Assembly: GCA_000614405.2 (NCBI GenBank)
Contig: GCA_000614405.2_3612.1
DNA length: 64,000 nt
Strand: one strand, 5' to 3'
From: Escherichia coli O157:H7 str. 2011EL-2287
GTDB taxonomy: Bacteria > Pseudomonadota > Gammaproteobacteria > Enterobacterales > Enterobacteriaceae
Program-made: the position numbers and the translations under genes
Notes under the pieces: model-generated
The model's database searches: none
The model's input: only the letters and a program-made list of their open reading frames with translations
What the model was told of the DNA's origin: nothing
Shown: positions 34,136 to 37,189 of the stretch, piece by piece
How positions within the stretch are numbered: position 1 is the first letter of the stretch
Layout: each line of letters opens with the position of its first letter

Positions 34136-36559
34136 ATGAGCATGTGGTCGTTCGACTTTGAGTCATCCGGTTTGCTGGAAGACCCAGATCTTTATTATCA
34201 CTGCGGCCTGTTTAAAGAGCTGAATAAGAACCGTTTTATGCTGTTCCTTCCTCTAAATGACCGCACACACTACTCCGAGGAGGATATAGAAAAGGCTAAG
34301 AACTTCATTCTGGCAAAGAAAACTCTTTATAAAGATTTTGAAGTTCGCATAGCAGATTTTTCAGAGTTGGAAGGTTGGCTTACAGGAAATTCTGACTGGT
34401 CACCAACAGCTTTGAACTGCCATAACTGCTACAGTTATGACTTTATGCTGATGGAAAGATTATCTGGTATTCATTTTGATATGTTCCGTGATCCTAAATG
34501 TATGGGGACTATCAACGATCACCAGGTTAACCTGTTTGATACGTTGGCGATGAGCCGAATCTTGTGGCCTGATCGCCCTTTACCAAAAGGTTGTCCGGAC
34601 TCTGTATTCAACCCGGTTACTAAGAAAATGCAGCCTGTTGGTCCTCACGGCCTTATGGCATGGGGCTACGCCCTTGGTAACCAGAAAGTTCAAATTGATG
34701 ACTGGCGCGATCTTCCGTTATGGAAGTATGTGGATCGTGTATTTGAGGACGTTATCATCCAGGAGCTGCTCTGGAAAGAGCTGGTAGCGGAATCAAAAGG
34801 TGTATTCTACGGCAAATCTGACATGCAGAACTTTATGTACGATCCTGCCAAAGAGAAGCCGAAAGGGTTCAAGAAGATCACCTGGAAGAACGCATTACGT
34901 CGAGGCATGTTGCAGCACTTCCTGATGGAGCTGCAGGCCCGTCAGGGTGTATACTTCGACATAGATGGAGCTATTGCTTTACGTGACCGTTGCGATGCGT
35001 GGATGAAAGAAATCGCTGATCGTGTTGAACCACAACTGCCTTTAAAAGAGCTGTTAATGTCTCAGCGGCCCAAGTTCCCTGAAAAGCCGTTTAACCAAGA
35101 TGGGACAATCTCTAATAATGGTTGGAAATGGTTAAAAGATAAGCTTGGCTATCCTGTGGACATGAGTGCTTTAGAGTTCAAAGCCCCACCTAAGCGAGCA
35201 TTTACCTCTACAGGAGATGTCAGTAAGATGGGGATAAAATGGTGTGAAGAGATGGGCTGCAAAGACCACGATAAGATGGCTGATTTCTTGAGAGGCTATA
35301 TTAAGGGCACCTCCACACCACAACCTTTACCTAAAGAGCTGATGGATCAGGCAATAAGCGATCTGCAGCAGAAGCGAATGCCTGACTGCAAGATACCTAT
35401 GAAAATCAGCAATCAGGACGATATTAAGCGATACCTGATCAGTGCTGGTTGGCTTCCGACAATGTGGAGAACTAAGGATGTAACTAAAGACAGCAAGAAG
35501 AAAGCTTTACCTGATGCAGATGTTGATGCACGAGTATATGCATATATGGACGAGCTTTTGGAGTCAGAGTATTGTGACCTAATTATCAACTTCTGGAACA
35601 AAACTGATGCTAAGTTCCAGACAACCGTGCACAAGTTCCGAAGCTTTCCTAACTCCGAAAGGATTAAAAAGGAAGTATTCGGGAAAATACGTAGAAAAGC
35701 TAGGGCACTTATTACTTCTCCGCAACTGAAAGATACGTTTGGACACCTGTGTCCGAATCTTGAAAAATTGAACGGAGAGATGGCTAAAGATATCGTCTTA
35801 TGGTTATCATTGCGAAACCGCAGATCGGTCCTTGATCCACTCAAGGAGGATAAGGTTGACACTGGTCTTCTTAATCACCCACGCTTGAAGATTGACCATA
35901 AGCTTCCTGCTAAAAGTTCTGGGCTAACAAACACTTCCAGACAGAAACACAGTATTTGTGCAAACATGCCTAAACCATCTCCTAAAGTGGTTATGGGTAA
36001 AGAGATGCGTAGTCTATGGGGTGTTCCTCCGGGATACTTTGAGATCGGTATTGACGGGTCCAACTTAGAGCAGCTTATCGGAGCTTGGGGTGCCTTTGAG
36101 TTCGACAACGGCTTGTATTATGATGTTGTAAGTAACGGGGACGCACACCAAAACAATGCTGAGGCATATACAAAAGTAGCAGGTAGAGAGGTGTCTCGTA
36201 ACGACGGTAAACCTATCACGTATGGGGTTATGTACGGGGCACAAAAAGATAAAGTTGCAGACATGCTGGATATCTCTCCAGAGTTGGGACAAAGGGTAAT
36301 CGATGCACTCTGGGATGCCAACCCTGGTCTTAAGGGGCGCAAAGAGGATCTGGAGAAATTCTGGGAAGCAACAGGTAAGAAGTTTATCTACTCTTTTGAT
36401 GGTCATGCTATCTGGACCCGATCTAAACACTCTTTACTTAATGCATACCAACAGAATGGTGGTGCATCGCTGTGTGACTTAGTTGGGATACTCATGCACC
36501 ACCAAATGGTGAAGCGTGGGTGGTACGATGAAGGTGTTCGTCGTATTATTTATTACCAT
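34136..36559 (+). CDS. family A DNA polymerase, exon 1 (3'-5' exonuclease + polymerase motifs A and B)
   Basis: Exo I FDFESSG, HCGLF and WGYALG align to T7 gp5 as I recall it; motif A GIDGSNLEQLIGAWGAFEFDNG; motif B RNDGKPITYGVMYGA; ORF stops right at the His of motif C. Confidence 0.85.
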
Positions 36560-36835
36560 AAATAACATTGTGGCTTCATAGAGTAATCTATGTCGAATAA
36601 CCTCTTTAACTGCGGGAAGCCTAAACCTTATGGCAAGGTAATCCGCAACGAAGCGCTCAAAAGAGCGAACGCTCAGAGGCCATTCCGAAAGGAAGTAGAC
36701 CAGCAAGTGCGGTCGAAATGGGAGGATTCCTGTGGTTGCTTATCATAGGAATATGAGATGGTCCGATCCTACGTGAAAACGTATGGCTATGCACGTAATG
36801 GTGCGGGGTAGCTTAACGACCTACCTGAACTATTG
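36560..36835 (+). ncRNA. group I self-splicing intron (no ORF) in DNA polymerase gene
   Basis: Inserted between His and Asp-Glu of motif C; follows exon U, ends with G; GUGG guide near 5' end pairs with exon CCAU; core elements AACUGCGGGAAG, AAUCCGCAAC, GUAGACCAGC, GAGAUGGUCC. Confidence 0.7.
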
Positions 36836-37189
36836 GATGAGTACCAACTTCAGGTCCCTGACACACCTAAGTATAAGACTGTGTACACCTTCGACACAAT
36901 TGAAGAACTGGAAGCATTTAAGGCAGAGCAGGAAGCCAAACTTCATGTGTTCGACGGTCATAAGTACAAAAAGGCACGCAAGGATGAAAACGGAAACGAG
37001 GTGGTTGACAGAGACGGAAACACGGTGTACGATCCTATCCTGAACGATGACGGAAAGCTTGAACTTATCTGGAGCCCTGTGGGCGAGATGGTGGTACATT
37101 GCTTCTGGCAAGCTTCTAAAATGATGGGAGTCCCGTTCCAGATCACAGGTGAATACTTGTGTGGTCGTAACTGGGGTGATTGTCACTAA
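36836..37189 (+). CDS. family A DNA polymerase, exon 2 (motif C Asp-Glu to C-terminus)
   Basis: Begins DEYQLQV (cf. HDEIQV of T7 gp5); ends GRNWGDCH, matching the conserved Pol A C-terminal NW..H. Confidence 0.65.
   Translation, partial: DEYQLQVPDTPKYKTVYTFDTIEELEAFKAEQEAKLHVFDGHKYKKARKDENGNEVVDRDGNTVYDPILNDDGKLELIWSPVGEMVVHCFWQASKMMGVPFQITGEYLCGRNWGDCH

Follow-up and report, generated by a model that had tools for sequence, protein, structure and literature searches.

An endonuclease-free group I intron within motif C of the family A DNA polymerase gene of an rV5-like Vequintavirus

The locus described here lies in a 64,000-nt stretch of DNA, analysed as a whole and referred to below as the window, that is an rV5-like Vequintavirus; its polymerase locus is 94–98.5 % identical to those of rV5-like coliphages of the genus Vequintavirus. 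All features given in window coordinates are on the plus strand. The gene for a family A DNA polymerase is present as two exons, defined from the list of ORFs, their translations and an alignment with T7 DNA polymerase. Exon 1 (34136–36559; 808 codons) contains the motif A/B region and ends ...RRIIYYH, and exon 2 (36836–37189; 117 codons plus stop) runs from DEYQLQV to GRNWGDCH and provides the Asp-Glu of motif C; the final codons of the first are TAT TAC CAT and the first codons of the second are GAT GAG TAC CAA. When the intervening DNA is read through, the ORF opened by exon 1 (34136–36565) takes in six further nucleotides, AAA (Lys) and TAA, and ends ...RRIIYYHK*, while the second ORF (36833–37189) begins (TTG)DEYQLQV. 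The in-frame UAA stop (36563–36565) that ends unspliced exon 1 therefore occupies intron nt 4–6, one Lys codon downstream of where it had been put by the sequence-only reading, an earlier description made from the letters of the window, which had the stop directly after the His. Every homolog read likewise has an in-frame stop early on.

Excision of 36560–36835 and translation of what remains leaves both exons in frame and yields a protein of 925 aa, with the junction peptide IIYYHDEYQLQVPDTPK and the junction DNA CAT/GAT (the slash marks the exon junction here and below). An alignment of this joined protein to T7 DNA polymerase (E 1.6e-13, T7 residues 469–658; PDB 6n7w and others) crosses the exon junction and sets yyhdeyql opposite wvhdeiqv at T7 653–658; the splice site therefore separates the His of motif C from its catalytic Asp-Glu. 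Residues 620–822 also match Pfam DNA_pol_A across the junction (E 9e-8), at a score of 31.9 bits that is below the gathering score of 34.3. Exon joining thus restores motif C, with YYH/DEYQL aligned to WVHDEIQV of T7, and the regeneration of an H-D-E motif, which the sequence-only reading had noted, is borne out by the alignment of YYH/DEYQ with VHDEIQ.

The intervening 276 nt match a known RNA family. In an Rfam scan of the whole 64-kb window with 4227 families the sole match was to RF00028 (group I intron), the model against which the sequence-only reading had wanted the locus checked; the match lies at 36550–36785, scores 64.7 bits (gathering score 50; E 4e-14) and covers model positions 1–253 of 253. 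Using the joined protein as a tblastn query, we found uninterrupted polymerase genes in EduardKellenberger, nomine, rV5_ev156, bov10K2 and B9-1. In EduardKellenberger and nomine the intron-less alleles read ...TATTACCAT/GATGAGTAC..., with no base in between, the Rfam scan of the intron-less alleles gave no match, and in these near-identical sister phages the encoded protein is the joined protein of the window. The TATTACCAT/GATGAGTAC junction is lost if the boundaries are moved by a single base in either direction; they are therefore exact to the base, and the interval 36560–36835, first proposed from the letters alone, stands unaltered on the evidence of the in-frame exon join and the intron-less alleles. 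The exon U before the intron and the terminal G were likewise read correctly: U36559 lies just before the intron and forms, at the 5' splice site, a wobble with G36570 of the internal guide (U-G in 14/14 homologs), and the last base, G36835 (the terminal guanosine, or omega G; intron nt 276), which defines the 3' splice site, is G in 15/15 homologs. Six other ORF-less variants score 70–91 bits against RF00028. We conclude that 36560–36835 is a true group I intron, free of any endonuclease gene, precisely bounded and structurally conserved, and that its removal leaves a reading frame for the same protein as that of the intron-less alleles.

Every helix of the canonical group I fold, P9.0 included, can be written with standard pairs in the window (second numbers in brackets are intron numbering, with nt 1 at 36560). 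P1 (36556–36573) pairs exon CCAU and intron AA (36556–36561; exon CCAU plus A1–A2) with the guide UUGUGG (36568–36573; U9–G14). Within it GUGG (36570–36573) faces exon CCAU, the pairing that the sequence-only reading had singled out, and the wobble U36559.G36570 (U-1.G11) marks the 5' splice site; the six pairs are 100 % paired in 14/14 homologs, five of them being invariant. The P10 guide CAUU (36566–36569; C7–U10) can form four canonical or wobble pairs with the first four bases of exon 2, GAUG (36836–36839). P2 (36577–36592; nt 18–33) is a hairpin with a GUAA tetraloop, 100 % paired and with compensatory changes in 6/6 pairs. The 5' strand of P3, CCUCUU (36601–36606; nt 42–47), pairs with the 3' strand GGGAGG (36720–36725; nt 161–166), which is placed by covariation (3/6 pairs compensatory, 100 % paired). 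P4 (36611–36647) joins the P strand UGCGGG (36611–36616; nt 52–57) to the Q strand UCCGCA (36642–36647; nt 83–88), is 94 % paired and encloses the short P5/P5a hairpin (36620–36638), hard to align with the P5 of relatives, which is longer; P6 and P6a follow as the hairpin CGCUC-AAAA-GAGCG (36649–36671), whose loop houses an HNH endonuclease gene in relatives.

The R element CUCAGAGGCCA (36672–36682), located through the Rfam alignment, comprises J6/7 and the 5' strand of P7. This strand consists of G36676, a bulged A36677 and GGCCA (36678–36682), and pairs with the S element core UGGUCC (36759–36764) as G117–C205, with A118 bulged, and 119–123 with 200–204; P7 is 100 % paired, with two compensatory pairs. 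Guanosine binding by a G-C pair of P7 is a general property of group I introns, and the presumed G-binding pair, G36678–C36763, lies beside the bulged A36677 and is G-C in 14/14 homologs. Between the 5' strand of P7 and the 3' strand of P3 stand the P7.1 hairpin UUCC-GAAA-GGAA (36683–36694; nt 124–135), supported by canonical pairs, covariation and the minimum free energy (MFE) fold, the linker G-U-A (36695–36697) and the P7.2 hairpin GACC A GC-AAGU-GC GGUC (36698–36714; nt 139–155), whose two parts are 100 % and 96 % paired, with four compensatory pairs. P8 (36727–36751; nt 168–192) is a 9-bp hairpin resting on the same three kinds of evidence as P7.1. P9 (36768–36786; nt 209–227) has a GAAA tetraloop, is 99 % paired and has five compensatory pairs, and the peripheral P9.1 (36790–36805) and P9.2 (36806–36826), together 36790–36826, are 100 % and 97.6 % paired, with three compensatory pairs in P9.2. 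The window copy thus has three tetraloops, GUAA in L2 and GAAA in both L7.1 and L9. An unconstrained MFE fold recovers 12 helices, with a modest z of -2.75. We also observed a possible long-range pairing between GUCG in J2/3 (36593–36596) and CGAC in the P9.2 loop (36817–36820); every homolog read retains its UCG/CGA core (as UUG/CGA in Aeromonas), which varies too little for covariation.

Conservation of the fold was assessed in an alignment, A1, of introns at the same H/DE site in 14 phages (Vequintavirus, Certrevirus, Seunavirus, Mydovirus, and Vibrio and Aeromonas phages), from which ORF interiors were cut out. Standard pairs make up 95.1 % of its cells, as against 35–42 % when partners are slid by 1–3 columns, and 44/81 pairs have changed on both sides; the observed values were matched by 0/500 shuffles. 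P1, P9.0 and P10 are near-invariant across homologs and the covariation support comes from the other helices, with compensatory changes in each of P2, P3, P6, P7, P7.2, P8, P9 and P9.2. Within the core, P3, P4, P6, P7 and P8 are 93–100 % paired with compensatory changes, P7 itself differing in a compensatory way between the window (GGCCA/UGGUC) and most relatives (GACUA/UAGUC). P5 has only 3 + 2 bp in the window, and its alignment columns are 74–78 % paired, mainly because the P5 of relatives is much longer. The same alignment bears on the P, Q, R and S elements that the sequence-only reading had named: P AACUGCGGGAAG, Q AAUCCGCAAC and S GAGAUGGUCC agree with the structure, and the segment taken for R, GUAGACCAGC, turns out to be the 5' strand of P7.2. 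Tried as the 5' strand of P7, GUAGACCAGC is 78.6 % paired with no compensatory change in A1, and its fourth pair holds in 1/14 sequences, that of the window itself; this candidate was rejected. Subgroup IA2 is recognized by P7.1 and P7.2 joined by G-U-A (PMC3428280). In the window intron both hairpins are found between P7 and the 3' strand of P3, and the G-U-A linking them is invariant in 14/14 sequences (columns G142 T143 A144 of A1); the Vibrio forms are without P7.1. Judged from sequence and covariation, the architecture of 36560–36835 is that of subgroup IA2.

No homing endonuclease is encoded. Considered as possible degenerate endonucleases, the longest internal ORF (36590–36748; 52 aa) and an 86-aa ORF that overlaps exon 2 out of frame (36783–37043) gave no Pfam match. 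The homing endonuclease by which a mobile group I intron is defined is therefore absent from the window copy, which cannot home by itself. On this point, and in its central proposal of an ORF-less group I intron inside motif C of the polymerase, which the Rfam match, the boundaries, the T7 alignment and the covariation all uphold, the sequence-only reading was right. It went too far in calling the intron unusually compact: ORF-less introns at the same site measure 253 and 254 nt in Vibrio phages 10AMN and K470 and 317, 328, 329 and 343 nt in other phages, and given this range of 253–343 nt a length of 276 nt is unexceptional within the family.

The intron family at this polymerase site spans the Vequintavirinae and some Vibrio and Aeromonas phages, and its endonuclease-bearing members (L003 3925–4766; L007 955–1726; L013 543–1229; L014 554–1472; L016 509–1351) differ in the gene they carry and in where they carry it. 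An HNH gene lies in P6a in isim, CR9, SSE121, GEC_vB_MG and Aeromonas phiA009; phiTE and CB7 have another, different HNH gene, which begins in a P5 extension and continues across Q and P6; and a LAGLIDADG gene lies in P7.1 of PVP-SE1 (with Pfam HNH_3, two of four matches to the relatives' ORFs fell just below the gathering score). A single intron lineage, at a single site in the polymerase gene, thus harbours three unrelated endonuclease genes in three different loops. In the forms with an ORF in P6a the ends of the insert are complementary, as in CR9, AGGACCACG...CGUGGUCUU (L007 1057–1575), so that a stem which leaves P6a preserved closes off the endonuclease gene. The long P5 arms of the 328–842-nt forms (L003, L004, L008; intron nt ~70–115) contain a sigma-70-like TTGACT...TATGCT, the P5 extensions of phiTE and CB7 (L013, L018) contain a sigma-70-like TTGACA...TATGAT, and the PVP-SE1 record annotates a promoter within the intron (L014 622–648); the motifs in the P5 arms may be the endonuclease genes' own promoters. 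This sigma-70-like feature is lost from the short P5 of the window copy. Vibrio phages K470 and K412 (OZ196312 / OZ196335), AlexBoehm (MZ501048) and others each have two places that match the intron, so that a second, related intron or a piece of one may be present at another place in these genomes.

Among the Vequintavirinae forms the window copy has the shortest P5, P6a and P7.1, and a loss of activity is conceivable on that account; it is also a mosaic: its ends are 98–100 % like those of sister Vequintaviruses, its P7/P9 core is 93–94 % like the Seunavirus and Mydovirus forms, and its P5, P6a, P7.1 and P8 are unique to it. A simple deletion derivative of the 842-nt HNH form of sister phages was considered as its origin and rejected, since the nearest relatives of the segments differ.

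Considering a potential mechanism, the polymerase gene would be transcribed into a single pre-mRNA in which the intron RNA would fold into the P1–P9.2 ribozyme. An external guanosine bound in P7 would then attack the phosphodiester after U36559, at the U.G wobble of P1; exon 2 would be held in position by P10 together with the terminal G36835, and the freed 3'-OH of exon 1 would attack after G36835. The ligated mRNA, reading ...YYH-DEYQ..., would be translated into the 925-aa polymerase with motif C intact. In the absence of splicing the product would be a truncated polypeptide of 809 aa (...YYHK*) lacking the catalytic Asp-Glu. Given the intact core and the experiments on the CB7 homolog discussed below, we consider it very probable that the 276-nt copy splices through this guanosine-initiated two-step pathway and so restores motif C.

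Other explanations of the locus have to be weighed against this one. That the resemblance to a group I intron arose by chance, the 276 nt being an ordinary spacer between two genes, is a reading for which only the two-gene annotation of some records speaks; it is already refuted by the Rfam E-value of 4e-14, by the precise absence of the segment from intron-less alleles that encode one continuous protein and by the covariation that backs the structure, and its probability is close to nil. Alternatively, the element could be a dead relic that stays unspliced, the polymerase then consisting of two separately translated chains (809 aa and ~117 aa) that associate post-translationally, as is reportedly the case for the mobE-split NrdA of Aeromonas phage Aeh1. 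Several public records do carry two separate 'DNA polymerase' CDSs, but these annotations are automatic and accompanied by spurious intron ORFs. Peripheral P5, P6a and P7.1 are indeed minimal; however, all core elements are intact, with compensatory changes across genera, and the core is under purifying selection. Moreover, a split at this point would part the Asp-Glu of motif C from the rest of the palm, in mid-strand, and exon 2 is poorly provided for separate translation: an in-frame ATG and a Shine–Dalgarno sequence were sought for it and neither was found, its sole upstream start being a TTG built from the last three intron bases. In phage CB7 one HNH-associated intron in another gene was found unspliced, whereas the homolog at the same site as the window intron, CB7_50, splices in infected cells, as demonstrated by RT-PCR and cDNA sequencing (PMC7344957). 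We therefore regard a dead relic as very improbable.

Whether splicing would be autonomous is a separate matter. We infer that the 276-nt copy splices without protein help, and think it unlikely that it splices in vivo only with a host or phage protein or through coupling to translation. In favour of such dependence, peripheral stabilizing domains are trimmed in comparison with the sister forms, and the in-frame stop at intron nt 4–6 holds ribosomes near the 5' splice site; dependence on translation has been reported for T4 introns. As an argument for autonomous splicing, Bonocora and Shub (2004) reportedly observed that the IA2 introns from ΦI and W31 splice themselves in vitro when conditions are mild. 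Three tetraloops are present in the window copy, and smaller versions of 253–254 nt persist at the same site. The Pf-WMP3 intron likewise self-splices in vitro under mild conditions (PMC3428280).

The intron itself is already known, in that it has been deposited and annotated and a homolog has been shown to splice. By blastn it is 100 % identical in rV5 and in at least 18 further phage records among the matches listed, and at least 99 % identical in at least 23 phage records; in rV5 (NC_011041 / DQ832317), RudolfGeigy (MZ501102) and MaxTheCat (MZ501094) 276/276 nt are identical and the position in the gene is the same. In the BASEL record of RudolfGeigy (MZ501102) the polymerase CDS is entered as a join of two pieces across exactly this locus, intron boundaries having been set in the BASEL paper through comparative genomics (PMC8594841). 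The 2013 genome paper on rV5 reports introns in the terminase only and a polymerase of 775 aa, the polymerase intron going unnoticed (PMC3606486), and the rV5 RefSeq record divides the polymerase between two CDSs that flank small spurious ORFs, among which gp222 and gp221 lie wholly or partly within the intron. Compared with the window, rV5 NC_011041 (L002 1501–1604; 3956–4409) has one extra base at polymerase codon 5–6, a frameshift that accounts for the annotated 775-aa gp223 and the tiny gp224. For the 276-nt copy we found neither a published secondary structure nor a splicing assay in the literature; a paper on retrons that mentions Vequintavirinae and introns proved irrelevant, as it concerns a group II intron. 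We also observed that 14–16 'Campylobacter phage' records (MG0656xx, host C. jejuni) are 97–100 % identical at this locus to E. coli rV5-like phages and have the identical intron, and the C. jejuni host label of these records looks doubtful.

The main value of these findings is for annotation, since many rV5-like genomes, the RefSeq reference included, split an essential polymerase into two genes, and both the split and the spurious intron ORFs of rV5-like records can be corrected by a covariance-model scan. No new biological principle is added: group I introns at conserved catalytic sites of phage polymerase genes have been known since 1990 (SPO1), and Pol I site 881 has been known as such a site since 2004. 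Nonetheless, a single site in closely related culturable phages is found empty, with an ORF-less intron, with HNH-bearing introns of two lineages and with a LAGLIDADG-bearing intron, which makes it a convenient system, if one of modest added value, for studying intron and endonuclease turnover and competition between phages. We tentatively raise the idea, which we hold to be possible yet rather doubtful, that the 276-nt intron is kept and is not a decaying relic, because, once occupied, the site is no longer cleavable by the HNH or LAGLIDADG endonucleases that co-infecting relatives encode (site-occupancy immunity in phage–phage competition). If so, the polymerase site would display the whole homing cycle, from empty, through invaded by three unrelated endonuclease genes, to stripped down to a minimal ribozyme, and the mosaic make-up of the window copy would reflect repeated recombination at the site. 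Since all of these intron states exist in culturable BASEL phages, the idea is directly testable; among these phages EduardKellenberger is intron-less, HeinrichReichert, WalterGehring and EmilHeitz carry the HNH intron, and RudolfGeigy and MaxTheCat carry the 276-nt form.

Finally, the window intron may be compared with known systems. The introns of the Pectobacterium phages CB7 (CB7_50, between exons CB7_51 and CB7_49) and phiTE, members of Certrevirus in the same subfamily, interrupt the same site, ...IIYYH/DEYQLE..., and have a homologous core throughout A1; they are 687 nt long and carry an HNH gene, whereas the window copy is ORF-less with a short P5 and P6a. The polymerase introns of SPO1, SP82, Bastille and Pf-WMP3, at site 674, and of Xanthomonas phage phiL7, at site 676, lie in the fingers subdomain and bear ORFs, in contrast to the ORF-less window intron in motif C of the palm. 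Pol I site 881 is presumably the His of motif C, given the established equivalence of T7 D654 and Klenow D882; the window insertion follows the His that aligns with T7 H653, and the comparison with site 881 holds at the level of residues only. At site 881 the T7-like phages ΦI and W31 are reported to have an IA2 intron with an HNH gene in P6a (PMC3428280). They resemble the window in having a family A polymerase interrupted by an intron of IA2 type (P7.1-G-U-A-P7.2), and they share an HNH gene in P6a with the window's relatives isim, CR9 and SSE121; their hosts are podoviruses, whereas the window is an rV5-like myovirus without the endonuclease gene. A distant blastn search with the intron gave no T7-like match, and tblastn with the isim HNH protein gave no T7-like polymerase intron among the 60 matches listed of 1741 records. 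Common descent of the window intron with that of ΦI and W31 is plausible.
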